Source of the DNA: an uncultured virus (IMG/VR IMGVR_UViG_3300021197_001384)
Taxonomy: Duplodnaviria > Heunggongvirae > Uroviricota > Caudoviricetes
Strand: one strand, 5' to 3'
Length of the DNA stretch: 64,000 nucleotides
IMG/VR virus record: IMGVR_UViG_3300021197_001384
The position numbers were made by a program, and so were the translations under genes. This document shows positions 1,680-54,896 of this stretch, in pieces. The stretch's first letter is position 1. Every line of letters begins with the position of its first letter. The notes beneath the pieces were generated by a model. It was given only the letters and a program-made list of their open reading frames with translations, was not told the origin of the DNA and did not search any database.

Positions 1680-2073
1680 GGCCATCCGCACAGCCCGCAC
1701 AGCGTTAACGGGTAGTAGGGCTTCGATAGACAGGCGAAGACAAGGTTACTAGGAGCGGTGCAACCCCGTGCCTGGTGTAAATGGCGCAGGTGTGGGAACC
1801 TGCGGGTCAGTGATTGTTGACGACGGCCAAACTTGGACTTACCAGCCCGAGACGATCACAAACGCACAACCAGCAACTCATCCGCAAATGAGCTGGAAGC
1901 GACTCTCTCTCCTACTTTGGGGTAGGGGGGAGGTCTGCCCGCTTTCCAACAATCTAAACCGAAATGAGCATGAGCGACCAACGGGAGCGGCGAACAAGGA
2001 GTGTTTTCTTCTTGGGCGTTTACGCCCCCTAGTGAAACAAATAAATTAACTAAAAGAATAGACTTATTGAGAC

Positions 2074-2142
2074 AAGTTTATCACTTAAACATAGCAAAGT
2101 TTATCACTTAAACATAGCAAAGTTTATCACTTAAACATAGCA
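2074..2142. repeat. 3 x 23-bp perfect tandem repeat, iteron-like; candidate origin
   Basis: AAGTTTATCACTTAAACATAGCA at 2074, 2097 and 2120 in AT-rich intergenic DNA. Confidence 0.85.
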
Positions 2143-2161
2143 AAATAGGTAATAAACCCCA

Positions 2162-2190
2162 TAGACAGGCTTCAAAGATTAGTGCATGAT
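2162..2190 (+). promoter_or_regulatory. possible promoter for the nuclease/cassette operon
   Basis: TAGACA-17 bp-CATGAT upstream of ATG 2214. Confidence 0.35.
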
Positions 2191-2213
2191 GTAGCCAACA
2201 ACCACAAAAACAT

Positions 2214-2981
2214 ATGAGCCAACATTTCTACGATATTCACGGCAAACCATGCCACACGCAGACGATTAAGAGCGGCCCCAACAAGGGGGAGCCACGCAAC
2301 ACCACCAAGGGCGACGCCAAGCGCAAGAAGCTATTTCCTTCTGTCTCAGCCTATACGGGCATGATGGCTAAAGAATGGCTAATCCCTTGGAGCATTAAGG
2401 GCGTGCTGGGCATTGCCTACGACCAACCCGCTATTGCCGGAGAGGATCAGGACGAATGGCGCAAGTCCATCACCCAGAAATGGGACAAGGTTAAAATGGA
2501 GCCTGCCGAGCGAGGGACAGCCCTTCATGCGGCCATTGAGGAGTATTACACGGCGGAATCCTGGACTGTCTCCGAGGATGATTACCATTTCTGTATGCCC
2601 GTCATTCATAAGCTGGAGGACTTAGGGGTGGAAGTGAAGCACACCGAGAAAGTGGTGGTGAATGCGGCGATGGGATACGCTGGCACCGCCGACATCATTG
2701 AGAAGACGGGGCAGATAGATGACTTCAAGAGCAAGGATTTCAAGGGGAAGGACACGGTGATTCCCTCGTTCGATCATTGTATGCAGCTTGCGGCCTATTT
2801 TGTTGCGGCGAATGGACACAACAACTTCCTTCCTTGCCGTAACATCTATTTCTGCCGTAACGAGCCGGACAAGGTGATGGTGAAGGAATGGACACCGGAC
2901 GAGTTGACAACGGGATGGGAAGCGTTTCAGGCTTGCCTCACGCTTTACCGCCTCACAACAGGATTTGACGCAAGACAATGA
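2214..2981 (+). CDS. PD-(D/E)XK superfamily exonuclease
   Basis: RGTALHAAIEEY, GYAGTADII..IDDFKS and QLAAY motifs. Confidence 0.8.
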   Translation: MSQHFYDIHGKPCHTQTIKSGPNKGEPRNTTKGDAKRKKLFPSVSAYTGMMAKEWLIPWSIKGVLGIAYDQPAIAGEDQDEWRKSITQKWDKVKMEPAERGTALHAAIEEYYTAESWTVSEDDYHFCMPVIHKLEDLGVEVKHTEKVVVNAAMGYAGTADIIEKTGQIDDFKSKDFKGKDTVIPSFDHCMQLAAYFVAANGHNNFLPCRNIYFCRNEPDKVMVKEWTPDELTTGWEAFQACLTLYRLTTGFDARQ

Positions 2982-3193
2982 AAGACATAGGAACCAACAT
3001 ACAATTCGGCCAGCACGTTCGCATCCTAGACGGAGACGTTGAGGGCACCGTCATTGGCATCAATCTGGACGACAACGGGGAAGTGGTGATTACGGTGGAT
3101 TGCGAGTCTGAAGGCATTTACGAACCCATGCATGAGCATGAGGTGAAATCTAAGTCGAACACTAGTGCTGATTCGCGCCGTCTTCGGCGTTGA
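2978..3193 (+). CDS. hypothetical protein ending inside attC-like site 1
   Basis: ATGA overlap with the nuclease stop. Confidence 0.6.
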   Translation: MKDIGTNIQFGQHVRILDGDVEGTVIGINLDDNGEVVITVDCESEGIYEPMHEHEVKSKSNTSADSRRLRR

Positions 3194-3212
3194 ATCTAGC
3201 ACATGGTTCTAA
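3154..3212 (-). repeat. attC-like site 1 (59 bp)
   Basis: + strand GTCGAAC-6-GCTGATT-hairpin-AATC(T)AGC-5-GTTCTAA; canonical R''-5-L''(8, bulged 4th base)..L'(7)-6-R' on the - strand. Confidence 0.75.
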
Positions 3213-3244
3213 ATCAACGAAGCTAAAAATAACACTATAAACTA

Positions 3245-3454
3245 ATGGATACGATAAACATACACGAAACAAATCAGACACTAGGCGAATTGATCGCCCT
3301 AGCACACCGAAAGCATGGGGGGAACTGCGACTATGATGATATAGTAGTGGAGACTACTCGGGACTGCGGATTTAAAGAATGGTGGAACCTTCACGGGTCA
3401 GGCATAGTGCCACTGAAGACTCACGACATGGAGGAGACACGCAGAAATGGATGA
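3245..3454 (+). CDS. cassette-like orphan ORF
   Basis: Lies between attC-like sites 1 and 2; stop inside site 2. Confidence 0.6.
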   Translation: MDTINIHETNQTLGELIALAHRKHGGNCDYDDIVVETTRDCGFKEWWNLHGSGIVPLKTHDMEETRRNG

Positions 3455-3505
3455 ATCGAAAAACACGACGGTGCAACCTGCGTTGTCTCGCTCGTCTAGT
3501 TATAC
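3418..3505 (-). repeat. attC-like site 2
   Basis: GACTCAC-6-GAGGAGA-cacgcag..ctgcg(t)tg-TCTC(G)CTC-5-GTTATAC; left core has CAC instead of AAC. Confidence 0.7.
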
Positions 3506-3719
3506 ATTAATGTCGTATTCCGTGAGCCCTGACGGGCTCAAGAATCACATCAAGTCTCCGATACTATGGGGAAACTTCATCAAGGACGACCGCTCAGCGG
3601 TGTGCCTGCCGCTCGCATATCTCCGAAAGCCAAAATGGATGAGTGACGAGGACTGGGGCAAGGTGGTTTCTGGGGTAAATCTACACATGCCCCATGAGGC
3701 TAAGTCCTTCACTGTATAA
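3447..3719 (+). CDS. cassette-like orphan ORF
   Basis: Starts inside site 2; body flanked by complementary GTTATAC and GTATAAC. Confidence 0.65.
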   Translation: MDESKNTTVQPALSRSSSYTLMSYSVSPDGLKNHIKSPILWGNFIKDDRSAVCLPLAYLRKPKWMSDEDWGKVVSGVNLHMPHEAKSFTV

Positions 3720-3773
3720 CTGCTCCGATCAGACGCGGGGCGAAGCCCCGTTGTCTGGGGCTGATGGTTAGCA
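3714..3773 (-). repeat. attC-like site 3 (60 bp)
   Basis: GTATAAC-6-GATCAGA-cgcggggcgaagccccgttg-TCTGGGGC-5-GTTAGCA. Confidence 0.7.
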
Positions 3774-3835
3774 ATTTATCACAATGAGACAATCCTACTG
3801 CATATTCCTAAGCCTACAACGCGGGCAACGATGGC

Positions 3836-3855
3836 GACTTAGCGACTGGTTAGAA
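3836..3855 (-). repeat. attC-like half site (right half only)
   Basis: GACTTAGC-gactg-GTTAGAA; core is complementary to TTCTAAC at 4124. Confidence 0.5.
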
Positions 3856-3869
3856 CCTTTTAAAATACC

Positions 3870-4142
3870 ATGAACGAAAATCAAAAATACTGCATCGAAA
3901 TGTTAGAAGAGTGGGTGTTCGGAGCCCACCATCTCCCGAAGGTGAAAGAATGGGGTCGCGGCGTTTGCGTGAACTATCGCGGTGACCTTTCGACCTTCGA
4001 CGGTGACCGGCTAACGAGGCTTGTGATCCTCGCGCACCGTCGGAAACCACCGAGGGAAGGGCTGCGAATGCACGAATACCACCCGACGCTTTCCGACCTA
4101 ACGAAGTCAATCGAAGCGCAAATTTCTAACACCAAGGACTAG
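3870..4142 (+). CDS. cassette-like orphan ORF
   Basis: Flanked by GTTAGAA and TTCTAAC; stop inside site 4. Confidence 0.65.
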   Translation: MNENQKYCIEMLEEWVFGAHHLPKVKEWGRGVCVNYRGDLSTFDGDRLTRLVILAHRRKPPREGLRMHEYHPTLSDLTKSIEAQISNTKD

Positions 4143-4197
4143 CATGAATGAAGTGAAGAATGAACGTAATGAATTGTCTAGCTCCGACTTGTTATCT
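4124..4197 (-). repeat. attC-like site 4
   Basis: TTCTAAC-5-GGACTAG..CTAG(C)TCC-5-GTTATCT; left spacer one base short. Confidence 0.65.
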
Positions 4198-4500
4198 CTG
4201 ATACAGTCGGAACCTGACGCAGACGCACACATCCACTACGACCAAGGAGAATGGTGGGTTACAAGCGAATGGCTTTGCGGTGGATTTGCTGGCAGGGCTT
4301 TTACGGGGAAGACCCAAGAGGAAGCCGCCGACAAGTTAATCGAATATCTGAATGCACACATTGGGCATGATAGCTGGGTAGGGCAAGACGTAACGAAAAG
4401 CGGCTGGCCTAACCTCAAGGCGGTCAAAAGCTACCTAGTGTCTATGCGCGAAGAGGATTCCATTGAAGATAACACCCCTAGTGAGCAATCCCGACCCTAG
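4144..4500 (+). CDS. cassette-like orphan ORF
   Basis: Starts in site 4, stops in site 5; body flanked by GTTATCT and AGATAAC. Confidence 0.7.
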   Translation: MNEVKNERNELSSSDLLSLIQSEPDADAHIHYDQGEWWVTSEWLCGGFAGRAFTGKTQEEAADKLIEYLNAHIGHDSWVGQDVTKSGWPNLKAVKSYLVSMREEDSIEDNTPSEQSRP

Positions 4501-4598
4501 AATATTATGAGCAGTAGCAACGAAACGAATACAGCAACGCCACCCGCCAGCCCCTCGAATGGTGCACGGTCGGGATTGGCTCCAATAGATGGTTCGGT
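4467..4598 (-). repeat. attC-like site 5 (132 bp)
   Basis: AGATAAC-6-AGTGAGC-aatcccgacc..ggtcgggatt(g)-GCTC(C)AAT-5-GTTCGGT. Confidence 0.75.
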
Positions 4599-4764
4599 AA
4601 TTCCAGTCACCAAGGTGGAGGCCATTCTCAAGCGGGTATGGAATCACACAATAACTGTTGCGGGTGCAAATGACTACCTAATCTACGAGTGCGATGAGAT
4701 TATCTGCCTCGAACCCGAGAAAACAAAACCGAACAAGGCAGTTAGCCAATCCGGCCGAAAATAA
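4507..4764 (+). CDS. cassette-like orphan ORF
   Basis: Starts in site 5; body flanked by GTTCGGT and ACCGAAC. Confidence 0.6.
   Translation: MSSSNETNTATPPASPSNGARSGLAPIDGSVIPVTKVEAILKRVWNHTITVAGANDYLIYECDEIICLEPEKTKPNKAVSQSGRK
4728..4757 (-). repeat. terminal half site (truncated attC or attI-like)
   Basis: ACCGAAC-6-GTTAGCC-aatccggccg with no matching right half. Confidence 0.5.
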
Positions 4765-5044
4765 AAGACGCTAATATGGAAGCCCCCTTCTTTTCCTAAT
4801 GCAACTATCACTGGCTGACAATGACGAAAAAGCGTCTGAGAAATGCCAGCGGAGGGCAACGGGGGCCAACGGTGCCCCTTACCAGATGAGAGGCACCCCA
4901 TTAGGAACTCTTTAATATGGATCTTAAGTGTTGCCTAAAGGGGCGGGATGGCCTCCGCTGAATAAGGCTAGTAGCACAGGGGGGCGACATCCCCCTAGGG
5001 GCAGTGAAAGACTGTCGGGGTCCACCAATTCAACATAAATAGAC

Positions 5045-5287
5045 ATGATACAAGAAACAAAAGAATCCATTCCCTCCCAATTAGACCTCCTTAAAGGCTC
5101 TATTGTATTCGTAGATGGTGCGCTCCTCGGCTTAGAGAAGAGCATGGACGTGCTAGAAGGAGACACGCTGGCATTCAGCTCGCGCCTTCAGCAGCTAGAC
5201 GCCATTCATCAAGTGCTGCATGACCTTCGTGAGGACATGGCAGCACAGGCACGCCTTAGCGAAGAAGCATCTGTAACGGAGAAATGA
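5045..5287 (+). CDS. hypothetical protein
   Basis: ORF coupled to the helicase by ATGA overlap. Confidence 0.6.
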   Translation: MIQETKESIPSQLDLLKGSIVFVDGALLGLEKSMDVLEGDTLAFSSRLQQLDAIHQVLHDLREDMAAQARLSEEASVTEK

Positions 5288-6636
5288 TTGAGCCCCCCCA
5301 TTCAGAGGAAGCAGAGCGTTTCCTCCTCTCTATGATATTCACCCGCGATGAATACCTTGCTGAATCCATTGACCTCGGGCTTCGCCCCAAGCACTTCTAC
5401 ACCAAAGAGAACGCTGCCCTGTTCGATGCCGCCGTTGAGGCATTCGCTACAAGCGGGGGCATTGTCCTAGAGGAATTTATTTCCGACATCACGAAGAACG
5501 GGAAGCTGGAGGCGGTCGGCGGCATGGCCAATTACGTTGACATCACCAAGGAGCTGTTCTCCTCGCGATCCGTTAAGTATTGGGCGGGAGAGATTAAGAA
5601 CAGATTCTACCGCCGCAGGGCATTGGAAATGTGTCAGAACGCTTCCGTTGCGGCAGCAGACTTAGGGACGGACATTCACACCGTCCTAGCCAGCATCAGC
5701 AATCGCTCCCTAGACATCATTAATGAGCAGGAGAAGCCGGTGACGCTGGCTAATGCGGCGGATGATGCCCTTTCCCTCATTGAGCGCATTGAGTCGGGAG
5801 ACATTATTCAGGGCGAGCTAGGAGTGCCCACTCCCATTGAGTCCATCAACAAGTTCCTTGGAGCCCCCAGACCAGGCGAGCTGATTACGATTGCTGCCCG
5901 TCCTGGTGGGGGTAAAAGTTCGCTTATGCGTGGGCTGGTGCGGCACATCAGCGAACATTTTGGCCGCACTCTCTTATTCTCACGGGAAATGCCAATGAAT
6001 GAGCTTGTGACGATATTCGCGCAAGAAGCCTCAGCCGTGTCGTGGCGTGAAATACGAGACGGAACGTGCCTGCATGAACAAGTGGCAAAATTCAAGAAAG
6101 GGCTGGCTCGTGTTAAGGGACTAGGGCCGCGCCTAATGATTAACGACAGGGACAGGACGGTGGACCAGCTAATTGCCCGTATTGCCGCCGCATCACGCTC
6201 TGAGAACCCCCTGAAGGCCGTAGCCGTTGACTACCTCCAACGCTATGACCCACAGCAAGAGCGAGGAGAGACAAGGGACATGGCTATTGGACGCTTCACA
6301 ATGTCCCTCAAGGATGCGGCGATGCAGCACAATGTCCCTGTGTTCCTTGGGGCGCAGATTGGACGAGGATCAGAAAGAGAGACACGCGCCCCACGTTTGT
6401 CCGACCTACGGGAGAGCGGCAATATTGAGCAAGACTCGGATCGCGTTTGGTTCATGCACATTCCAGAGCAGACGCCAGAAGGTGCGCCACAGGATGCTAA
6501 CGACCAAGGGCTCCCCGTCATTTACGTTCAACTCCTACAGGCCAAGGGGCGTGGGGATGGACTGGGCAAGATCGACTTGGCGTTCCACCGCCGCATTACA
6601 ACGTTTACTGAGTGGAGGGATTTTACCAAGCAGTAA
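5284..6636 (+). CDS. dnaB: replicative DnaB-like helicase
   Basis: PPHSEEAE N-terminus, Walker A ARPGGGKS, VAVDYLQ, AQIGR, LSDLRESGNIEQDSD. Confidence 0.95.
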   Translation: MIEPPHSEEAERFLLSMIFTRDEYLAESIDLGLRPKHFYTKENAALFDAAVEAFATSGGIVLEEFISDITKNGKLEAVGGMANYVDITKELFSSRSVKYWAGEIKNRFYRRRALEMCQNASVAAADLGTDIHTVLASISNRSLDIINEQEKPVTLANAADDALSLIERIESGDIIQGELGVPTPIESINKFLGAPRPGELITIAARPGGGKSSLMRGLVRHISEHFGRTLLFSREMPMNELVTIFAQEASAVSWREIRDGTCLHEQVAKFKKGLARVKGLGPRLMINDRDRTVDQLIARIAAASRSENPLKAVAVDYLQRYDPQQERGETRDMAIGRFTMSLKDAAMQHNVPVFLGAQIGRGSERETRAPRLSDLRESGNIEQDSDRVWFMHIPEQTPEGAPQDANDQGLPVIYVQLLQAKGRGDGLGKIDLAFHRRITTFTEWRDFTKQ

Positions 6637-6646
6637 GAAAGGGGAT

Positions 6647-6889
6647 ATGAATACAAAACGAATGAAGGACGATGACGGGGAGTGGGTGAAGGACGGCGAC
6701 ATGATTGTGTTTGCCTACGGGATTCCGCCCGTCTATGTTTACGCCCCCGTAGTCGCTCGGGGAGGCTCGCTTTTCGCACTCACCCCCGACCACACCCCAA
6801 GGGAATGCAACCTCCGGTCACTCAGAACCTATGTTGGTTCTTGGTATAAATCCACCAAACACTTGACAACCATCACCAACCCCCTATAA
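6647..6889 (+). CDS. hypothetical protein
   Basis: ATG after AAGGGG just downstream of dnaB. Confidence 0.55.
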   Translation: MNTKRMKDDDGEWVKDGDMIVFAYGIPPVYVYAPVVARGGSLFALTPDHTPRECNLRSLRTYVGSWYKSTKHLTTITNPL

Positions 6890-6890
6890 A
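6863..6890 (+). promoter_or_regulatory. possible sigma70 promoter
   Basis: TTGACA-16 bp-TATAAA. Confidence 0.4.
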
Positions 6891-6913
6891 CCATCATCAA
6901 CAACACACAACTA

Positions 6914-7168
6914 ATGACACACCAACAAGCATTACGGGAGGACACCTGCACGTTCCCCTCTTATTCCATTTCCCTGAATAAGCGTTGTGCGGCACACATT
7001 GACAAGCTGGAGGCAGACGTAAACGACCTCGCGGAGGTTGTGGCGGTATTGCAGGCTGAAAACCAGCAGTCACATGACATTATTCAATCTCTTCTAAGGC
7101 TGATTCCGAATAACGCTGAAGCCTTGGAAATCATCAAAGACACATTCCACTCAACCGAAGGAAATTAA
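6914..7168 (+). CDS. hypothetical coiled-coil protein
   Basis: ORF in tightly packed operon. Confidence 0.55.
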   Translation: MTHQQALREDTCTFPSYSISLNKRCAAHIDKLEADVNDLAEVVAVLQAENQQSHDIIQSLLRLIPNNAEALEIIKDTFHSTEGN

Positions 7169-7169
7169 T

Positions 7170-7901
7170 ATGAGCCGCACACTGCAAGAAGACGACCGCC
7201 CCATAAATCCCTGTAAGAAGTTCCTACGCTGGGCTTCTGGTGACAAATGCTGGCGTTACTGGGACAAGGAATCCGAGAAGATGGAGCTTGTTCCACACAA
7301 GACCCCTTTCATTGTCCTGGATCAGCTTTCCACCTGCTCTGGCTTTAATGACCGTAAGAACTGCGGCGTCTGGTCTAACGAGGTTCGCAACCTTAAGCTC
7401 CCCATGCGAGTGCAGGACAAGGACGGCGAGGTGTTCTCTGGCCCTTGGCGCGAAGTGAAGGAGAAGGTGCATTACGCCAAGTTCTGTGCCTCTGTTTACG
7501 CCGTTGCCAAGCTGGGAGACGACTACGAGATTGTGAACTTCCAATTGTCCGGTGCCGCATTGAGCGGCTGGATTGACTTTGTTAAGGAACTTGGAGGCTC
7601 CAAGGCCGTCTATGGTGACGTTGTTGTTAGCGTCCCGTCCGTTGGCGAAGGCAAGAAAGGATCGGTGAACTACTCATTCCCAGAATTTAAGGTGGTGAGT
7701 AACACCCTCTCGGACGATGCCAAGGCTAAGGCAGACGAGGCCGACAGCACCCTCCAGTCCTACCTCACAGCCTATTTCGCCGCATCCCCCGAAGGGAAGG
7801 CCGCAAAGGTGCATAGTGAGAACGTGCAAGCTTACGAAGCCCCCGCCCCTTCTGCGGAGCCCACGCTCCCAGACGAAGAAGACGACGAAATGCCCTTTTA
7901 A
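7170..7901 (+). CDS. putative ssDNA-binding protein
   Basis: Beta-rich core and SSB-type acidic tail EEDDEMPF. Confidence 0.6.
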   Translation: MSRTLQEDDRPINPCKKFLRWASGDKCWRYWDKESEKMELVPHKTPFIVLDQLSTCSGFNDRKNCGVWSNEVRNLKLPMRVQDKDGEVFSGPWREVKEKVHYAKFCASVYAVAKLGDDYEIVNFQLSGAALSGWIDFVKELGGSKAVYGDVVVSVPSVGEGKKGSVNYSFPEFKVVSNTLSDDAKAKADEADSTLQSYLTAYFAASPEGKAAKVHSENVQAYEAPAPSAEPTLPDEEDDEMPF

Positions 7902-7969
7902 TTTTCGGTTAGTGTGTTCGTTCATAACAGCCCTTGCTCCGTGGGGTTAATCACGGAGCACCAATTTTA

Positions 7970-8344
7970 ATGGCAAGAGTAGCCAGAACACGCAACGGAG
8001 GCAAATGGACGGAAAGCCAATACTGGTCAGCCATTCGTTCCGCCCTCCGTTCTAAGTTCCGCTACTGGACCCCCGCCACACAAGCCCTGAAAGCCGCCGA
8101 ACGACCCTCTAAATCCAAGAACAAACGTCTCAAATATGAATATCAATGCGCTAAATGCAAGAAGTGGTTCAAGCGTGCCGATGTGCAAATTGACCACATC
8201 ATCCCATGCGGGAGCTTGAAATGCGCAGACGACATTCCAGCTTTCTTAGAGAGACTAACCCCAGAGGATTCGGCGGCTTTTCAGGTGCTCTGCTCCAAGG
8301 ACCACAAGATTAAAACCCAAGCAGAAAGAAAGAAGCGTAAATGA
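7970..8344 (+). CDS. HNH endonuclease
   Basis: CAKC..VQIDHIIPCG..FQVLCSKDHKIKT. Confidence 0.85.
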   Translation: MARVARTRNGGKWTESQYWSAIRSALRSKFRYWTPATQALKAAERPSKSKNKRLKYEYQCAKCKKWFKRADVQIDHIIPCGSLKCADDIPAFLERLTPEDSAAFQVLCSKDHKIKTQAERKKRK

Positions 8345-8607
8345 AACGCTCCCCCCTTCGCCGCATCAGCAAGAAGCAACAGGAACGACTACGCACCTAC
8401 TACCCCCTCCGCAAGCAATACCTCAAAGACCAGCCCACCTGCGACCTGTGCGACAACGCCGCCACCGACATTCATCACACTAAGAAACCAAGAGCCACCT
8501 ACCTAAACGCCGTAGAGACATGGATGGGACTGTGCCGCATTTGCCATTCGCGAATAGAGAACGACAAGGCATGGGCCAGAGAGAACGGCTACCTGGAAAA
8601 CATATAA
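8341..8607 (+). CDS. HNH-like zinc-binding nuclease
   Basis: CDLC..ATDIHH..LCRICH. Confidence 0.75.
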   Translation: MKRSPLRRISKKQQERLRTYYPLRKQYLKDQPTCDLCDNAATDIHHTKKPRATYLNAVETWMGLCRICHSRIENDKAWARENGYLENI

Positions 8608-8608
8608 C

Positions 8609-8803
8609 ATGACACAAGAAAGCATCGCACAACTAAAGAATGTTCAGGAATATCTGATTGAGGATATGTATTCCTGCTACTGCGACGTCATCAACGGCGA
8701 GCCACAGGCGGAAGTGGACCTGTTCCAATCCCTGCAACGCCTCAAGACATTTGCAGACGCCGTGCAAGGACTGGAGGCCGTAGATGGATTGCAATACACC
8801 TGA
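8609..8803 (+). CDS. hypothetical protein
   Basis: ORF in tightly packed operon. Confidence 0.5.
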   Translation: MTQESIAQLKNVQEYLIEDMYSCYCDVINGEPQAEVDLFQSLQRLKTFADAVQGLEAVDGLQYT

Positions 8804-9065
8804 GCCTCCCCCGCCTAAGTGCTACCAACGACAGGGCGGCAATGGATACGAATACATTTGCGAGTCCTATGGTAGCTCCAGAGACTCAGACGAGGAATAC
8901 ATCATTGACCTACACCCCGATCATTTCGGATGCTCCTGTAAGCACGACTATTACAAATTGCGGGAAAAATACACGAATGGGGTTGACACTTCCAACATCT
9001 GCAAGCATACAGCCTTGGCAATGCAGCAGTTCTACGTAGACCACATCATTAACAGAAATAAATAG
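8784..9065 (+). CDS. SWIM zinc-finger protein
   Basis: CSC..CKH motif; same family as 56974-57246. Confidence 0.7.
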   Translation: MDCNTPEPPPPKCYQRQGGNGYEYICESYGSSRDSDEEYIIDLHPDHFGCSCKHDYYKLREKYTNGVDTSNICKHTALAMQQFYVDHIINRNK

Positions 9066-26187: not shown

Positions 26188-29100
26188 TTAGAGTCTGATT
26201 GTTGGTGATGATTTTTGAGATTCTTGGCGACGACGTTCTGCGCCTCCACCGAAGTGGCCATACCAGAAGCCACCGACCACGGGAACGGTGCGCCACAGGC
26301 TGAGATTTCCGGGCTTGAACTCCTCGCCGCTAGTTGCGGCCTTCGCCATCTCGGAAACTCCCTTGGCGGGCTCGGTAAACCACGGCACGGGGGGGGCCAG
26401 ATAAAGGGCTATGAACTTGGAGGGATCATTCAGTCGATCCATCTGCTGGATGTGGTAGTTGGAGAGGCCACCGAGCTTGTAGATGTTATCGACAGCGGTC
26501 TCGGACAGATTCATCTCCCGGCCCATGAGCCAGTCCTTGAGCATGTCCACTGGGACTCCGATCAACCAGAAGAGGGCAGCGAGACGGAGCACATTGCCCA
26601 TGCCCTGAGCCCGTTCTGCTGGGGTCTTACCGAAGACCACCTTATTCATTCCTTCACGCCAGAAGGCGTTGAGCTGTTTGACCGTAAAGGTCTTCAGCAT
26701 GTAGACGATCCGGCCGTTGGGATTGCGTAAGTATGCCTCAGGAAACTCGGAAAGATTGATGGGCTGGTAGTCAGCCAAGGTGGAGTAGGCGAGGAACTGA
26801 ACGTCCTCGGTGAGGTTGCCCGCCTTGAGGTCTTCCATCACCTGAGCTGCCTGCTCTGGAGTGAACGATGCATCGAGCGTGGCTTGGGACTTGGTGTCCA
26901 GAGTGCCAGTTCGGGCCAGCTTCTCCAGCATGTTGATCTTCCCGTTCATCAGCGTCTCCTTGCCGATGCGGTCCATCCACTTCAGGCCAGTCAACGTGAA
27001 GACTTGATCGAGCACCTTGTGGGTGGAGTCCATCGATGCGAACTCAGCCGAATGGGTCTCGATGTTGAACTGGTCACGGGTGACCCGGGCATTGCCACCG
27101 ATCACATCTGCAGCGGTGGAAACGGTGTTGAAGAATCCGTTCTCGTAGATGCTAAACGCGAAGTCACCGAGCTGGGTGAGCGTGCTGGTCAACTGGCCCA
27201 TCGTGGTGATGTAGCCAATCGTCTTAGCCCACCGGACCATTTGTTCCATGACGCCTTGGTTGAACCGAGCCTCCAGCATGGCACGAACTTCTTCGGCTTG
27301 CCCGGGAGGGGCGTCTGCCAGCTCCTCTGCCACGTAGGCGCCGATGGACTGGTTGATGTCGGTGGTGGTGCCGAACGTCTCTGACGCATCGGTGATGTTG
27401 TCCAGAGTCACGTTGTGCTTCCCGAAGAACTGGGCACGACCCACGGCATCTGCCGACTTGTTGATGTGGCTGATAAGGGCAGTGAGACTGTCCTCGTAGA
27501 ACTCGGCTGCAGCTGGGGTGACGATCCCAGTGGTGCGCTGCTTGGTGGCCGAAGGACCGGAGGTGCGGATGGTCTTCTTGGAAGCAAGAAACTCGTTGAG
27601 GACTTCCTGCTTCTCCAGCTCTCCGAAGGTGCGGCCGTCTTCCTGCATGCGCTTCTGCGTCTTGCGTATTAGGGCATCCAGTTCGCCACCATACTCGGAC
27701 CCGTAGTAGTGATTCCAGAGGGCATCGAGATCCTTCACCTTTCGGGGGAAGTAGTTGGCGATGAAGCCGATCTCGTAACCTGAGTCGATCATGCGCTGCT
27801 TGATGTCAGCGAGCAGGGATTCGACTGGCTCGATGGTCAGGTTGAACTGGGCGAGGATAGCATCACGGGTCTCGGTATCGCCATTCATGAGGGCAAGGTT
27901 GAGCCGTTCGTAGACGGCCTTGTCCTTCTTGATGCCCTCAAGGCCATCAATAAAGGGCTTTACCCGATTCAGATCACTGTGCTGGTTGATGCCGATTCCC
28001 ATCTCCATGCGACGGAGCAGCTGGGCAATACGGGGACTGATCTTGAAAAGGCGTTCCGAGATGGGGACCGCGAGTTGAGCACCAACCCGGGCAAAGCCCA
28101 TGTTGGTGGTGGCCATGATCCGTTGCTGCGGAGTCATTGCAGCCTGTTGCTTCTGGATAACCGTGTCGTCGGTCAGGTTGCCGTGGGCCTTGAGTGCCTC
28201 CAGCTGGAACGTGATCTCCTGCTCTGCGTTCAGGGGAACGCCGGAGAGCTGGAAAGTCTGGTCTACGCTTGGGCTGAATGCTCCATCTGAGCTGCTGGAT
28301 CGAAGAGTAGGTCGTAAAGCTCCAAATCCGAAAGCTTCGTATCCAGCATCTTTTCGTAAGCTGGCCGAGCTGCTTTCAGTCTGTTCACGATCTCGGGATC
28401 GAGCCCACTCGGGAGCTGCGATTCCATCGCTGAGGATTTGTTTTCTAGCTTGGCTGGCATTGGAGGAACTGTTCCAAATTTGCGCATACTTGTCAACGAA
28501 CGCCTCGTCCCGCTTGGCCGCATCAGGAAAGAGCATTCTGACAGCCTCCCATGTGATCGACTGCATCTGGCGAGGGAGTAGTCCGCGCTTGGCTGCAGCA
28601 CGCTTGTATGCCTCAAGGTGAAGCCAGTAGGTGCCTGAGTTGTGGGGGCCACCAACGCCAGCTTTACCAAAGTTGAGATCCACCTGATAACCGCTTCCAC
28701 CCATCGGGAACAGTAGGTCTGCATTCACTGCGTGGGTGTCCATGGTCGCATCCCCGAACAGCGTGTTGGGTGCGATGATGTTGTTGTAGAAGTTGCGGAT
28801 CTTGTGCTCCAACCCGAGCTGGGTGGAGATGTTTGCAAGGCTTCCATCGGTGGCCACCTTGAGCGCCTTCACGATGGCTGAAGTATCCTGCCACACCATT
28901 TGCTTGATGCCTCCGTCGTTGTTGGTGCGGACCCCCATCGCAAACCCCTCAGGTGCCAGAACGTCGTGCATCAGCCCATGCTTCTGAGTGGACACAATAC
29001 GAGTCGCCCATGCCGCCAGCTCTTGGTTCCCTTCATCCCAGAGTTGCTGGATGGACTTACCACCAATTCCCTTGAGCAGTTTGGCTCGATTCTGCTTGTC

Positions 29101-32100
29101 CTTCTTATTTTTCGGAATGTTGGCAATCTGATCGATGGCTTTTTTGAAGTCCTTGCGGGTAACGGGAGTGTTCCGCTCGTTCGCGTAGACGTCGGCAAAG
29201 TTCATCGCCATCTGCACGTTCTGGAACCAGTCCTTCATCGGGCTGAATGCAGCAATGATCGCGCCCGACTGCTCCGGGGTCATTCCAAACTTGGATGACA
29301 TATCGTCCGCGATGATACGGGCACCGTCATACCAGTGTGTCGCACGGGACCGGAACTCCTCCGGGAACGCATCGTGCAACGCGAGCAGGTTATCCACCAT
29401 CATTCGGAGCAAGGCATTTTTGCGCTTCACTGGATCCGTGTGCTTCGTGATGAACGAAGGCATCTCATAGTCCACACCGACCATTTTATACACGCCCTTC
29501 TTCTTCTTCCGCTCTTGCTTCGTAAAGTGGGTCATCATCGCCATCTGCTTCTCCAGTGCTTGGGGAGTGACGTAGTCGATGCTGGTGTTGGTGGTCTGAG
29601 TGCGAGGGTTTGTCTTCGTGTCGGTTCCAGTGCCAACCCGTGAGGCATCGTATTCGTCGCTGGGCTTGGATACCTCCTCCATGCTGAAGGTAATGACTGA
29701 AGGCTTCACCGTCTTTTCCGAATCCTCGGCTACCTTGGCCTTGGCCTCGGCTACCTTGGCCTTGGCCTCGGCCTGAACTGCTGCTGCCGCCTCGTATTCT
29801 GACGCTTCGAAAGTCGGCGGCTTAGTTCCCTTGAGCACGCCTTCGGTGTCACGAACCATGAACACTACGTCAGGCTCGCCCATGGTGTCGTAGTTCCAGC
29901 CGTCTGGAGCGTATTCCCGAGAGAACTTAACCCGGGCGACCGACACGAACTTGAACTGTCCGTAGAGGTTCGGGAGGAAGCCGCCGATGTCGAATGCGTC
30001 CAGCGTTGCTGCATACTCGGATGCCTCTGCGAGCACTGCCTTCATCTTGGCGGTCGAGCCGGGCACCTTGTGGACGCTTTGCAGGTCACCGTAGCTGGTG
30101 ACCATCACCCCCCCGAGCTGATCCTCGGACTGGAAGAGCAGGTTTTCTGGGTCGAGGTAAGTCTTGAGATCGTAGACCGCTACCGCTGCGCCTTGCGGGT
30201 GCTCTTTGCGGGTCCGCTCGAGGGCTGCGTGGAAGCTACGTCCTCGGGCTTCAGGACTAACCCTGAACCGGCTGCGGCCATCCGCTCCCGAAGTGTCCTT
30301 TGGGGCATCGGGATCCGAAACAGTTGAGCTTTTTGCCGTGGCGTTAGCATCTGTCGATTGAGCAGGGATACTGCCTGCACTTGCAAGGCTAAAAGTGATG
30401 TTGGCCTTGGTCGGGTCAAACGTGCCACGGTTGCCGATGGCCGACTTGATCTGCGAAGGCTTGCTGATTGCGATCCAGAGATCGTCATTGAACTTGATGC
30501 CATCATGGCCTGCTCGCTTGGCCTTCCCGATCAGCTCACGGTTGGCCTTGTTGTAGTTCATGGCAGATGACCATTCCTTCTTATCGGCATCGGTCATCAC
30601 GTAGGGGTTCTCGATCTTGGCGTAGACGGGGAGCACCCGTGATGCCGTGTTCTTCGCCACCATGTCCCACGGGCCTGCTCCAACCCGCTCGTCACGGACC
30701 ATCCTCATGCTGTCGTTGTCGGTGGCGTATCCTGAAGCGACGACTGGATCACTGGTCAGCCAGACTCCCGTGTTCATCTTGAAGGACTTGAAGTCAGCGT
30801 CCTTCGAAGTGCCGTGATACATGACCTTCGGTTGGCCTCCCTCGTTGACCACAACGGAGTCTCCGAACCAGTTCTTGAAGGCATCGGTCTGGGTAGGCGG
30901 TGCAAGCTGGAAGGAATGACCAAGGCGAGAACTGTCGGTCCATCCTTCCTCCTCCATCATGCGTTGGGCTTGGACATCGAGCTGGGCATCGATCCGAGCT
31001 TTGGCTGTTGCAACCTGTTCGGCTTCCTTGAGGGCAACGGCATTGGCTTCGCGTTCCATCTGCGACTGCACTGCCATCTGCACCTGAGCTGCCTTGGCAT
31101 CGAGTGCCACCTGTTCAGCGAGGGCATCTGGATCTCCCAGTGCCTGACGCATCCAGCTCTCCAGCTTCGGATCCAGCTTCCCATCCCGCATGAGCTTCTT
31201 CATCTTGGCCGTTCCCTTGAGCATGGACCGCAGTGAGTCTCCAAGGCTCTTGAGCCACCTGCCAACCTTGGATGCAACGTCCACCCCAAGGATGGTCTTG
31301 CGCTTTGATAGGGCGTAGTCGACCAGAGTGGCCGAGAACCACTCAGTATTGGCCCGTGCTACGTTTTTTTGGTCCGCATTGGGGTCAGCCTCCCCCTTGG
31401 CCTGATAGAAGGCTCTACGGGCTTTTGTGACCTCATCCTGAGAAAACTGTTTAAGCTCGATTCCCTGCTTCAACCAGCCCTCGCCCACTTCTTCGATGAC
31501 GGTGGTGGGATTGGAATTGCTGGCCAAGCGCACTGCGATCTGCAGCAGGTCGTTCTTGCCCATGACTACTTGGTTGGAGCCTTTGATCGTGACCTTGGCG
31601 GGGTCCATGCCTTCAGCCAGCTGGCCAAGGTTGGTGGCGACCTCAATCGCATTGTCCATCTCAGCCTGCGTGATCTCTCCAGCCGCAACCATGTCAACCA
31701 GTCGGGCATTCTGGGCCTGCTCCACAGTGAGGTTCTCACCATACCGGCCTTGCAGCTCACGCAGCACTGACCCAACGGCATCTCCCTCGGCCTGTTTGTT
31801 CTTGGCCGCACGCTTCTCCCGGGAAACCCAGTTGGAGTATCGCCTCCACAGGTCAGCCTGACCCGGGTCAGCCATGTTGAAGATGATCGGTTTGCCATCC
31901 TCGGTGATAATTGCCGGAGCCCCATTGACCTCACCGATCTTGCGACCAGCGGAGTCGGAGGGACCAAGCTCCTCAAAGAGAGCCTTGGCCGTATCCTCTT
32001 GGTAACGGGCGTAAGCGTCACGATCACCATTTGCTGCATCCAGCACTGTTTGGCCCATGCTTGGATCGGGGGATCCAGCTAAGATCTCTTCGTCGGTGTA

Positions 32101-54338: not shown

Positions 54339-54356
54339 CGGGTGATGAATAACAAT

Positions 54357-54896
54357 ATGAAATCAGAAAACGAAGAAGTCTTCCGGCCCATTGCTGGCTA
54401 TGAAGATCTCTACCTAATCTCCTGCTCCGGTCGAGTTCAATCGTTACCGAGATGGGTCGTCTGCAATGGCGTTATGGCCCTCAGGGATGGACGGATCTTG
54501 AAGGGAAGCTCACATCCTGATCGATACAGGATAGTCGGCCTCTGGCGTGACGGAGTTAGGTGGACAAGTTACATTCACCGACTGGTGGCCCAAGCGTTCC
54601 TGAGTAATCCCGATGGCAAGCCGCAAGTGAACCACATCGATGGAGACAAGGCCAATAACCGGATGGAAAATCTGGAGTGGGTCACTGACCTTGAGAATAA
54701 GCGACATGCCATGGAGACTGGGCTGACAATAAAGGGCGAGGACCACGGTAACTCCAAGCTCACGGAGGAGGAGGTCCTTTACATTCGGAGCAATCCCGAC
54801 GGGCTCACTCAGCGTGAGCTGGCCACCAAGCTGGAAGTCTCCCAATCCGTGATCTGCAACATCCAGCTCGGCAAGACATGGGGGCACGTTCAATGA
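54357..54896 (+). CDS. NUMOD4-HNH homing endonuclease
   Basis: PIAGYEDLY.IS..GRV.S; HRLVAQAF..QVNHIDGDKANN..NLEWVT; C-terminal HTH. Confidence 0.9.
   Translation: MKSENEEVFRPIAGYEDLYLISCSGRVQSLPRWVVCNGVMALRDGRILKGSSHPDRYRIVGLWRDGVRWTSYIHRLVAQAFLSNPDGKPQVNHIDGDKANNRMENLEWVTDLENKRHAMETGLTIKGEDHGNSKLTEEEVLYIRSNPDGLTQRELATKLEVSQSVICNIQLGKTWGHVQ

Follow-up and report, generated by a model that had tools for sequence, protein, structure and literature searches.

Inverted attC-type sites within the reading frames of small genes in an uncultured tailed phage

Integrons are regarded as bacterial devices, and chromosomal arrays have recently been reported with anti-phage defence genes. Clusters of attC sites without an integrase (CALINs) are already on record for phages, 17 of them having been published (Qi et al., 2023, Front Microbiol, PMC9892861). 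Similar to these, as far as the available part of that article describes them, the locus analyzed here, which lies in a 64-kb stretch of DNA from an uncultured virus (the window), has several consecutive attC, belongs to a virulent-type phage and shows no adjacent integrase. DNA methyltransferases in the cargo are a further likeness, as N6_N4 and Dam methylases are found behind such sites in the related loci L004 and L007. However, the cassettes of two virulent phages in the published set are oriented like typical bacterial arrays, while those studied here are inverted; and the accessible text of that article describes no bottom-strand genes, in-coding sites, entry frame or stop/start modules, while here the site is read as C-terminal tail, stop, start and N-terminal leader. 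The inverted, in-frame architecture was not found in print.

PeSLs combine an (early) promoter with terminator stem-loop motifs and are thought to act via homologous recombination. The PeSL cassettes of T4-type phages (Arbiol et al., 2010, PMC2839356; Comeau et al., 2014, PMC4122927), compared here by their description in the available text, likewise set small accessory genes, in variable genome regions of lytic phages, between repeated stem-loop motifs, and the motifs were proposed to drive the shuffling of modules. In contrast, the motif of the present locus is the integron attC, the cassette borders lie at a fixed triplet, and features of the PeSL type were not in excess in 2800–5400, where promoter-like sequences numbered 1 vs. 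2.4 expected and terminator-like ones 0 vs. 2.5 expected. Since recognition of attC depends on structure, a site can also be embedded in foreign sequence, even in a coding region. Synthetic attC sites in arbitrary or coding sequence are, in the accessible part of the report, an engineered design (Nivina et al., 2020, Sci Adv, PMC7439510), unlike the natural and recurrent arrangement in phage genes described below.

attC-type sites of the variable block

In the available part of the source, the attC bottom strand is an imperfect hairpin, 5′-RYYYAAC ... GTTRRRY-3′, with AAC/GTT conserved, the AAC on the 5′ arm, extrahelical bases on the opposite (3′) arm, and a conserved T, at position 23 or 24, behind a stem of 6 bp (PMC5027507). 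An unpaired central spacer of usually 5–6 nt per arm and a total length of 57–141 bp were taken as further attC criteria. A rule-based scan (AAC, spacer, stem, bulge, stem, GTT) returned W5 and one chance match only and was too rigid, so covariance models were used instead. Model R1 was built from 40 bacterial or MAG attC sites only, and model R2 from 56 sites of other phage loci, none from the window; both were oriented as the attC bottom strand. The sites considered were as follows.

3158..3208, +: W1, attC-type site, short form, loop without ATG (R1 16.5 bits, E 0.025; R2 25.8 bits, E 2.4e-5)
3422..3501, +: W2, attC-type site, core CAC instead of AAC (R1 14.8 bits, E 0.076; R2 22.3 bits, E 2.4e-4)
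3718..3769, +: W3, attC-type site, short form (R1 16.7 bits, E 0.021; R2 29.5 bits, E 2.2e-6)
4128..4193, +: W4, degenerate attC corresponding in position to the good site L008:2712-2805, the start AACACCAAG being common to both
4471..4594, +: W5, attC-type site, long form (R2 21.7 bits, E 3.6e-4; 11-nt perfect inverted repeat)
4732..4747, +: W6, possible site remnant with two core boxes only (AAC, 6 nt, GTTAGCC)

The three best R1 matches in the 64 kb were W3, W1, and W2, all on the + strand and full length (E 0.02–0.08). The four best R2 matches on both strands of the 64 kb were W3, W1, W2, and W5 (E 2e-6 to 4e-4), all on + and all within 1.45 kb, while the next-best match had an E of 0.44; W1 scored 25.8 bits on + vs. 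7.1 bits on −. Of the six site cores that an earlier note on this DNA had listed, those of W1, W2, W3, and W5 belong to sites found by model, while W4 proved degenerate and W6 at most a remnant. W4 was missed by both models and folded no better than shuffles (z +2.2). For W6, the R2 match at 4726–4749 was on −, had its interior deleted and was not significant (10.6 bits, E 0.55), and no fold was seen (z about 0). As DNA, W1 and W3 folded better than shuffles (z −3.6 and −2.5), and the W2 fold by itself was not significant (z −1.3).

The geometry of the window sites matches the attC rules given in the accessible part of PMC5027507 in the arm that bears AAC, the extra bases opposite, the conserved T, and the stem, and agrees only in part with the rules for the outer core bases and the spacers. 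In detail, W1 reads AAC, a 4-nt spacer, 5 bp, an extra T, 5 bp, G.T, an extra T, a GC stem, and GTT; W2 has the stem GAGACA/TGTCTC, one extra T, and then ACGCAG/CTGCGT; W3 reads AAC, 9 nt, CAGAC, a GC-rich stem, an extra T, GTCTG, 9 nt, and GTT; and W5 reads AAC, 9 nt, GAGC, an extra G in the 3′ arm, a 10-bp stem, a 71-nt loop, 9 nt, and GTT. AAC and GTT are present in W1, W3, W4, and W5, and CAC replaces AAC in W2. A single unpaired T stands in the 3′ arm behind a 5–6 bp stem in W1, W2, and W3, at position 23 counted from the 3′ end of the 7-nt core; the extra G of W5 lies one or two positions before it, and the extra-T column is likewise unpaired in 40 bacterial sites. Spacers are 9 nt in W2, W3, and W5, as in the bacterial reference sites, and 4/3 nt in W1. 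Lengths from AAC to GTT are 50–124 nt, within 57–141 bp after the outer bases are added. The outer four core bases fit RYYY/RRRY poorly in the window (e.g., GTCGAAC / GTTCTAA), and do fit in related phage loci (GGCTAAC / GTTAGCC) and in bacterial sites (GCCTAAC / GTTAGGC).

Further, in the A4 alignment of phage sites, 89.4% of the cells were paired vs. 70.2% in shuffles (reached by 0 of 500), and 15 of 19 pairs had changes on both sides. Arrays of 3–7 well-scoring sites occur in 14 phage contigs, and their maintenance with such strong pair covariation argues for selection on the fold. A MAFFT alignment of 13 hand-picked sites aligned the right arms and not the left ones and was used only for a right-arm nhmmer profile, all 15 matches of which were on +. 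The motif CGTTGTCT alone was not enriched in the window (4 found vs. 1.95 expected). Hairpins of the IS200/IS605 or REP type were considered and rejected, since the models and the neighboring integron integrases place the sites with attC.

The sites lie among small genes of a variable block, all real ORFs of which are on the + strand:

3142..5307, +: variable block of seven small ORFs and sites, from blastn and sequence reading against L001 and L002
2978..3193, +: ORF1, 71 aa, body conserved in L001 and L002
3245..3454, +: ORF2, 69 aa, tail (His, then DMEETRRNG and stop) within W2
3447..3719, +: ORF3, 90 aa, own TAA at 3717-3719 overlapping the W3 AAC at 3718-3720
3870..4142, +: ORF4, 90 aa, PHROG match phrog_22261
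4144..4500, +: ORF5, 118 aa, conserved protein family, mobile between contexts
4507..4764, +: ORF6, 85 aa, tail Asn, then KAVSQSGRK and stop
4765..5044, no strand: 280-nt stretch of the block without a convincing ORF
5045..5287, +: ORF7, 80 aa, final gene of the block, ending ...GTAAC, 6 nt, ATGA onto dnaB

By blastn, the block 3142–5307 is missing in the close relatives L001 and L002, where ORF1 abuts dnaB, ending ...HEHEITHA with an ATGA overlap onto dnaB. The left border against these relatives is at 3141, 17 nt ahead of the W1 AAC, and the spacing from ORF7 to dnaB equals that of L002 (TAAC, 6 nt, ATGA). The ORF-free stretch 4765–5044 contains an inverted repeat (4847–4858 / 4949–4960) and had no Rfam match; no tRNA was found. 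Positions 2000–9000 had no blastn match among 50,697 phage records, tblastn gave no match for ORF5 and only distant Klebsiella phage proteins for ORF4, and IMG/VR scans yielded no close relatives of ORF2, ORF3, ORF4, or ORF6.

Entry frame and cassette borders

As the earlier note had claimed, the ORFs enter the left core in one frame: AAC is read as Asn at 3158 (ORF1), 4128 (ORF4), 4471 (ORF5), and 4732 (ORF6), CAC is read as His at 3422 (ORF2), and one ORF, ORF3, stops on the core TAA. Tails of 10, 9, 3, 8, and 9 codons follow the Asn or His in ORF1, ORF2, ORF4, ORF5, and ORF6, respectively; that of ORF1 (TSADSRRLRR) and its stop, TGA at 3191–3193, lie inside W1. The next ATG was correctly noted beside the stop at three sites, W2 (ATGGATGA, the loop holding the ORF2 stop and the ORF3 ATG), W4 (TAGcATG), and W5 (TAG, 6 nt, ATG, the 71-nt loop containing both the stop of ORF5 and the ATG of ORF6), while in W1 and W3 it is found 37 and 100 nt past GTT, outside the loop. 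The exit frames do vary, the G of GTT being codon position 2 at 3499, 3 at 4191, and 2 at 4592.

The expected frame bias also appeared across similar sites. Among 45 related phage sites with a + ORF ending inside, AAC is Asn in 29, and the gene's own TAA lies over AAC in 9; another frame-2 stop was counted in 4, and frame 1 in 3 (binomial p 1.9e-5). This and all other p-values are nominal, since the site arrays contain related sites. A stop follows within 14 codons in the Asn frame in 43/59 phage vs. 30/109 bacterial sites, and an ATG lies within −4 to +12 nt of the Asn-frame stop in 39/59 vs. 9/109. In the bacterial consensus, frame 2 has a built-in TGA (107/109 sites), so part of the frame bias follows from stop availability.

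The borders of shared sequence fall on the same triplet. By blastn, window 4127–4473 equals L004 3984–4330, with the left border at W4 and the right at W5; this ORF5 cassette is the only one in the window with direct border evidence. In L008 and L019, two cassettes are found in permuted order, and all three visible breakpoints are at AAC, the fourth running off the L019 contig; those of the L008/L019/L010 comparison fall at AAC as well. Altogether, four independent comparisons put breakpoints on the AAC triplet itself, the sequence to one side of it being unrelated. As the shared blocks begin and end exactly at AAC, the tail, the stop, and the ATG travel with the downstream gene.

The tails agree with this. 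In six contexts, the ORF5 family carries six tails after the Asn: TPSEQSRP in the window, AQDHG in L004, IDMNHVEEGMKNE in P0001, IRRSDTP in L008, KEISDG in L010, and ILDQPAAGLAQPKRST in L007, each followed by a stop. The divergence of C-terminal tails after the Asn, the check by which the claim could have failed, was thus observed. Conversely, unrelated upstream genes share the tail of one downstream cassette, as ...GPN in L008 and ...LAN in L019 are both followed by TKMRDA and a stop. Before the shared ORF5 cassette, the unrelated upstream genes end ...ISN, then TKD (window) and ...QDN, then AKV (L004); the tail TKD of ORF4 belongs to the next cassette.

The idea that each cassette lends a tail and a stop to the gene upstream therefore holds for the borders at AAC, while its companion, the linkage of N-termini to their genes, is only partly borne out. 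L010 carries the leader of L008 site c on an ORF5 body, and P0008, a homologue of ORF3 in which the ...RSFTV end is kept and the leader differs, carries the ORF5 leader MNEVRNERNEL on the ORF3 body. The site-encoded leader is thus exchangeable between gene bodies, and such exchange near GTT requires a second kind of event. In addition, a perfect direct repeat of 24 nt brackets the ORF5 cassette of L004, and a plain exchange between AA and C would not predict it.

Bacterial counterparts and the coding strand

Arrays of the same attC family were found in Horticoccus sp. (loci L045–L050 and L165) and an Opitutaceae MAG (L062 and L166), in two genomes 1–2 kb from proteins scoring 370 and 367 bits on TIGR02249, the integron integrase model (cut-off 265). 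The sites of the phage are members, or close kin, of the attC family found in chromosomal integrons of Opitutaceae (Verrucomicrobiota). The sedentary chromosomal integrons of Opitutaceae have the same layout (AAC, 9 nt, GAGCCA, stem, one extra T, TGGCTC, 9 nt, GTT), with arms near-identical to those of phage site L007:2919-3026. However, they have an adjacent integron integrase and genes on the top strand; their stop falls within ...GCCTAAC, the following ATG is found about 15 nt past GTTAGGC, and the sites are uniform (86–149 nt), while in the phage sites the left spacer is altered and accommodates an Asn-frame stop.

In the Horticoccus array, 22 of 23 ORFs are on the strand opposite to the phage-gene orientation, indicating that the phage genes are on the attC bottom strand, i.e., inverted relative to bacterial integrons with the same attC family. 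The inversion proposed earlier was upheld on this ground, by the bottom-strand models, which hit + only, and by the place of the single extra T in the 3′ arm. Consistently, a GC3 test of the left flank assigned 27 phage sites to + and 6 to − (31 ambiguous), vs. 6 and 28 for bacterial sites (44 ambiguous; nominal p 1.3e-7). A count of ORF ends at the site vs. the GTT side gave 26 bacterial sites with "+ ORF only" vs. 17 with "− ORF only"; it was noisy, with 44/100 uncalled, and was not relied on because GC-rich bacterial DNA has many antisense open frames. That the real coding strand might be − had been named as a possible refutation; the ORF5 substitution pattern, the ORF4 PHROG match, and the ORF5 family place it on +. 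Between ORF5 and its L004 copy, 7/8/29 substitutions fall on codon positions 1/2/3, and only the + frame is free of stops.

Phage ORFs were also compared by tblastn with the sampled bacterial arrays, the queries being ORFs of at least 45 aa from both strands of 18 phage loci together with the + strand ORFs of window 2901–5300. Only L180 gave matches, and the Geminisphaera loci L056 and L058 represent that same element. Overall, the earlier interpretation was largely right.

A putative phage cassette arrangement and the alternatives to it

These results would be explained if the region is a CALIN in an early or replication operon of a lytic-looking tailed phage, with sites that have their recombinogenic bottom strand on the coding side. 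A phage cassette would then run from the C of the split AA/C triplet through its own attC and the gene body to the ...AA of the next site. The upstream gene enters the attC with AAC as Asn, or ends on its own TAA overlapping AAC; in the former case it reads a short tail and meets a stop inside the attC. The ATG of the cassette is next to that stop or within the left arm, with part of the N-terminus encoded by the 3′ arm. As the attC is part of the reading frames, any cassette order would give terminated, closely abutting genes. Taken whole, this explanation, a CALIN with inverted Opitutaceae-type sites built into reading frames, is considered probable. The site family, the strand, the borders at AAC, the frame bias, and the enrichment of stop and ATG over the bacterial sites are observed; shuffling by a host integron integrase during infection and translational coupling through the stop/start arrangement are inferred.

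A wider proposal, a cassette system run by phages of integron-bearing bacteria that uses the host integrase with the attC as adaptor and keeps the gene pools apart, can be put forward tentatively as a possibility. Accessory early genes, counter-restriction methylases among them, would be packaged as inverted cassettes, and the attC in coding sequence would be an adaptor of universal use that supplies the Asn entry frame, the tail, the stop, the ATG, and a leader peptide, so that any shuffle would leave an expressed, tightly abutting operon. Host integron cassettes often carry defence genes, and inverted polarity would separate phage and host gene pools: phage cassettes in a host integron would face the integron promoter backwards, and host cassettes would lie antisense in the phage operon. 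If so, integron recombination would account for some of the mosaicism of phage genomes by a mechanism that has a name and can be tested, and would be a tool common to both sides of the arms race. The arrangement would also be a natural structure-specific recombination site inside protein-coding sequence with an expression-preserving frame convention, relevant to operon tolerance of shuffling and to recombination-site design. Gene callers and integron finders that expect top-strand genes upstream of attC would mis-describe such arrays.

Alternatively, the sites could be real attC that are passive relics of a past capture from a host integron, later shuffling being homologous or illegitimate at conserved short sequences, and the frame and stop/start pattern being whatever genes need to coexist with a terminal hairpin. 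Several observations agree with this: no integrase was found in the window, the L004 cassette lies within its 24-nt direct repeat, leaders were exchanged near GTT and not AAC, the left block border is 3141 and not 3158, and the frame-2 TGA is already built into nearly all bacterial sites. However, breakpoints on AAC itself in the four independent comparisons, the 3–7-site arrays of 14 phage contigs with strong pair covariation, and the absence of the searched phage-locus ORFs from the sampled bacterial arrays, except one shared element, make it unlikely. It is far less probable still that the hairpins are mainly RNA elements (terminator, attenuator, processing or stability signal, or start-codon gate) with a secondary likeness to attC. 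As the coding strand is the hairpin strand, the mRNA would carry the same folds, and the GC-rich stem-loops of W1 and W3, with the z values given above, closely follow or overlap a stop codon; yet 2800–5400 had none of the 2.5 terminator-like sites expected, and Rfam gave one chance-level match only. The extra T, the 9-nt unpaired spacers, and the AAC/GTT are recombination-site features common to bacterial sites, whose transcripts correspond to the opposite strand, and the cassette borders at AAC also argue against an RNA role.

The enzyme is a separate matter. A complete integron was defined by an intI gene, an attI, and a cassette promoter adjoining the array. Pfam gave no PF00589 match for an integron integrase or tyrosine recombinase in the window (72/87 ORFs), and tblastn of two IntI proteins against the 64-kb window, bases 1–64000 of a contig that runs to 70251, gave a best E of 0.26; with no intI found in the window, the cluster is a CALIN and not a complete integron. 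A phage-encoded recombinase could act on the sites instead of the host integron integrase, given the last 6 kb of the contig, beyond the window searched, and the related viral contig L189, where a Xer-like tyrosine recombinase lies directly behind an array (XerC model 47 bits, E 1.7e-12). This is held to be very improbable, as the L189 protein fails the integron-integrase model (33.5 bits, cut-off 265), the window and four related viral records yielded nothing comparable to it, and the sites match those adjoining bacterial integron integrases.

The variable block and the frames at its junctions

The window comprises bases 1–64,000 of a 70,251-base contig (locus L006), and its gene content is that of a phage:

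2214–2981, + strand, PD-(D/E)XK-type exonuclease
Between exonuclease and dnaB, + strand, seven small ORFs (ORF1–ORF7)
5284–6636, + strand, DnaB helicase
+ strand, HNH endonucleases and a polymerase exonuclease subunit
On the - strand, portal, capsid, terminase and tail-fibre genes

ORF4 (3870–4142) matched a PHROG family of unknown function, and the other six small ORFs had no functional match. Two IMG/VR relatives (L001 and L002), with DnaB proteins 92–93% identical to that of the window, were alignable to it through 3141 and again from 5308 with only 43 bases in between, indicating that the array was inserted or deleted as a whole (3142–5307). The left border of this block lies 17 nt away from the AAC of site W1; in the two relatives, ORF1 terminates as ...HEHEITHA-stop, its TGA overlapping the dnaB ATG. 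Within the block, a 280-nt stretch (4765–5044) without a convincing ORF holds a 12-nt inverted repeat (4847–4858 / 4949–4960, 92% complementary) and gave no match in an Rfam search. Elsewhere in the window, a 2384-aa protein (26188–33342, - strand) carrying PF18760, the ADP-ribosyltransferase domain of polyvalent proteins, and DUF7178 probably represents a virion protein that is internal or injected. Three HNH endonuclease genes lie in 7934–8607 and 54342–54896 (7934–8344 adjoins 8341–8607, and the third carries a NUMOD4 motif); since L001 departs from the window right after 8607, this region may be a second variable spot.

When re-read from the sequence and the ORFs, the frame arithmetic of the earlier note was correct throughout. 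AAC is in frame as an Asn codon at 3158, 4128, 4471 and 4732, CAC is in frame as His at 3422 (the core of W2 being CAC in place of AAC), and ORF3 stops on the core TAA (3717–3719), which overlaps AAC 3718–3720. The ORFs end shortly past the core, with tails of 3 to 10 codons after the Asn or His. At junctions 2, 4 and 5 the next ATG lies beside the stop, as had been described, while at junctions 1 and 3 it is located 37 and 100 nt past GTT, and the exit frames at GTT are indeed not uniform.

Membership of the phage sites in the bacterial attC family

The sites share a common plan, namely AAC, about 9 unpaired bases and a 5–6 bp stem, then a second stem whose loop spans 3 to about 75 bases, and a return arm with one extra base (T nearly always), about 9 unpaired bases and GTT. 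A 19-base return-arm pattern scanned against one genome per prokaryote species matched at least 147 stretches, among them tandem arrays of Opitutaceae: a Horticoccus contig carried up to 19 copies over 11 kb on a single strand, and further arrays were present in Geminisphaera and several Opitutaceae MAGs. The full plan was found in 103 of 191 distinct pattern matches, with cores GCCTAAC and GTTAGGC, which fit the classical attC cores RYYYAAC and GTTRRRY. TIGR02249, the integron-integrase model (cut-off 265), gave 370 and 367 bits for proteins adjoining the Horticoccus and Opitutaceae MAG arrays; these arrays belong to complete integrons, whose attC is the motif described here. The attC bottom strand is described as having AAC on the 5′ arm, extra bases on the opposite arm, and a 6-bp stem followed by a conserved T (position 23 or 24; PMC5027507). 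Folding 40 bacterial sites into a consensus reproduced these rules exactly, with compensatory changes in 9 of 19 pairs. The Horticoccus attC (L045–L050; 147–149 nt) have a long loop, the top strand of which holds a conserved ATG and about 20 codons terminating at the TGA of CTTTGACGTT, so that a short conserved reading frame is present in each.

A covariance model built from the 40 bacterial sites only (R1) was then searched, unfiltered, against both strands of the window. The three best matches were W3 (16.7 bits, E 0.021), W1 (16.5 bits, E 0.025) and W2 (14.8 bits, E 0.076), all on +, full length and with the same coordinates as those drawn by eye (3718–3769, 3158–3208 and 3422–3501), and the fourth had an E of 0.65. 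In 35 phage-type loci, R1 gave 77 matches at E ≤ 0.1 (63 without three duplicate loci), forming arrays of 3–7 sites on 14 contigs. The alignment of 56 of these phage sites, window excluded, had 89.4% of cells paired vs. 70.2% in shuffles (0 of 500 reaching 89.4%), both-sided changes in 15 of 19 pairs, and a covariation score of 0.395 vs. ≤0.083 with partners slid, pairing being favoured by its having been fitted to the model. The model from this alignment (R2) placed W3 (29.5 bits, E 2.2e-6), W1 (25.8), W2 (22.3) and W5 (4471–4594; 21.7, E 3.6e-4) as the four best window matches, all on +, the fifth having an E of 0.44.

W4 (4128–4193) was not recovered by the model search of the window, and the sixth site of the earlier note fared no better, giving only a non-significant match to the two cores. 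In DNA folding of the sites one by one, only W1 (z -3.6 and -3.9) and W3 (z -2.5 and -1.75) did better than shuffles, W2 and W5 being marginal; W4 did worse (z +2.2), and the sequence at 4732 gave no fold. W4 and this sixth junction are read as decayed sites. No model match was found in L001–L003, which lack the block, or in the contexts of distant ORF5 homologues, and one (34 bits) was found in L004, a different phage contig.

Clusters of attC in temperate and virulent phages have been published, and recombination of phage attC by IntI1 was shown in an assay (PMC9892861). Methylases were reported among those phage cassettes, and the cargo of the related arrays fits, with units encoding N6_N4 and Dam DNA methylases, a PAPS-reductase-like protein and DUF551. 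That paper's main text is silent on inverted genes, start codons and coding-sequence overlaps, and a full-text literature search, mostly outside subscription journals, found no publication describing phage cassettes that are inverted or translationally coupled.

Inverted polarity and a common entry frame

In the Horticoccus array, orienting the sites as they stand on + in the phage leaves 22 of 23 ORFs (≥50 aa) on the opposite strand, their stops within ...GCCTAAC and the following start after GTTAGGC. The integrase there is oriented divergently to the array, which is the textbook arrangement of integrons. Coding strands were also called in flanks of 240 bases, using open frames and GC content at third codon positions.

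Flank calls (+ / - / ambiguous) at phage and bacterial sites
Sites; left flank; right flank
Phage; 27 / 6 / 31; 20 / 9 / 36
Bacterial; 6 / 28 / 44; 8 / 28 / 72

The phage and bacterial calls differed at nominal p of 1.3e-7 (left) and 3.3e-4 (right), bearing in mind that phage contigs binned into MAGs may be among the "bacterial" loci (L180 and the Geminisphaera loci are one and the same element). The open-frame length test agreed, frames being longer on +, on - and on neither at 9, 2 and 2 phage sites vs. 13, 72 and 6 bacterial ones; counting ORFs that end in or at a site was noisy in the bacterial set and carries no weight. Between the ORF5 copies of the window and L004, substitutions at codon positions 1/2/3 were 7/8/29 and the sole open frame was on +, so + is the coding strand. 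These results bear out the claim that the cassettes are inverted relative to typical ones, the attC bottom strand lying on +.

The shared entry frame proposed from the window extended to similar phage sites. AAC was present at 59 of the 63 sites, and in 45 of these 59 a + ORF (≥40 codons) ended inside. The AAC was read as Asn in 29 of the 45, vs. an expected one third (binomial p 1.9e-5; all p-values are nominal because the sites are related to one another), the gene's own TAA lay over AAC in 9, the stop was the TGA of a conserved GATGAG in 4, and the remaining frame, that of the ATG, was used in 3. An Asn-frame stop within 14 codons was found in 43/59 phage vs. 30/109 bacterial sites, and an ATG at -4 to +12 bases from that stop in 39/59 vs. 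9/109. The spacer GTCAAAGAT of bacterial sites is altered in many phage sites, e.g., to GTTTAAGAT, which puts an Asn-frame stop directly before an ATG already in the bacterial consensus. Part of the frame bias reflects where stops are available, while the rest of it, plus the ATG placement, is phage-specific.

Cassette borders and exchange between phages

L004 has only 4127–4473 in common with the window (86% identity), a block extending from TAAC in the ORF4 tail to TAAC at Asn110 of ORF5 (4144–4500), past which the ORF5 copies diverge. Tail, stop and ATG are homologous although the upstream genes are unrelated (window ...ISN/TKD-stop, c, ATG; L004 ...QDN/AKV-stop, c, ATG). A metagenome scan with the ORF5 alignment yielded 15 loci. 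Two of them, L008 and L019, carry an ORF5 homologue plus one further gene in reversed order, with common blocks 96% and 93% identical, and three of three visible breakpoints fell at an Asn-read AAC, the far end of the ORF5 block lying beyond the L019 contig. As the earlier note had expected, C-terminal tails diverged right after the Asn, six ORF5 homologues having six different tails. Its companion expectation, that N-termini travel with the gene, failed in part: tail, stop and ATG do travel with the downstream gene, but the leader (the site-encoded N-terminus) can be swapped. In detail, the ORF5 body of L010 is joined near GTT to a site and leader resembling another L008 site, and P0008, an ORF3 homologue, retains the ORF3 end but starts with the ORF5 leader MNEVRNERNEL, indicating that the AAC-to-GTT stretch and the gene body also reassort. 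Units are bordered at AAC, the downstream unit donates the tail and stop of the upstream gene, and the start lies within or just behind the site.

We infer that a host integron integrase would fold and recombine the bottom strand in the infected cell, excising or inserting units that begin with the C of one AAC and end with the ...AA of the following one. A secondary site may have been the entry point of the first unit; the L002 junction reads TAAC, 6 nt, ATGA, and insertion outside att sites has been described (bioRxiv 10.1101/2022.09.11.507474). The common entry frame would let every cassette order terminate and restart translation, and on one reading the inverted polarity would keep phage and host cassette pools apart in expression. 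No integrase was found in the 64 of 70 kb of the contig searched. On a 73.8-kb viral contig, an Xer-like tyrosine recombinase (L189:1256–2725, locus - strand) lies directly behind a three-site attC array, with scores of 47 bits for the XerC model and 33.5 bits for that of integron integrases (cut-off 265); it may be a phage-borne recombinase associated with arrays of this kind, or just an integrase for lysogeny.

In L004, a perfect 24-nt direct repeat (3967–3990 and 4311–4334), not predicted by plain AA/C exchange, flanks the ORF5 cassette on both sides. It consists of the last 21 nt preceding the C of AAC plus the 3 nt following, so that a 63-aa upstream ORF shares the terminal ...EDAIQDN with ORF5, and it looks like the leftover of a second ORF5 copy or a homology-driven event. 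In L008, a short, high-scoring attC (4113–4174; 43.8 bits, R1) lies entirely within ORF 3831–4199 and is open throughout, with no stop (...LAN/TAGEPHAKRVGSDGLLDSEPQTPKQ-stop), and 133 nt of L019 bounded by AAC triplets (1963–2095) are also read in frame; both may be fusions from cassette joining. Distant ORF5 homologues (about 51% identity), fused at the N-terminus to an additional domain of some 60 aa, occur on AT-rich contigs of up to 289 kb (L012–L018), where they terminate as ...EEDSIS-stop with no attC-type site near, indicating that the ORF5 gene exists outside cassettes too.
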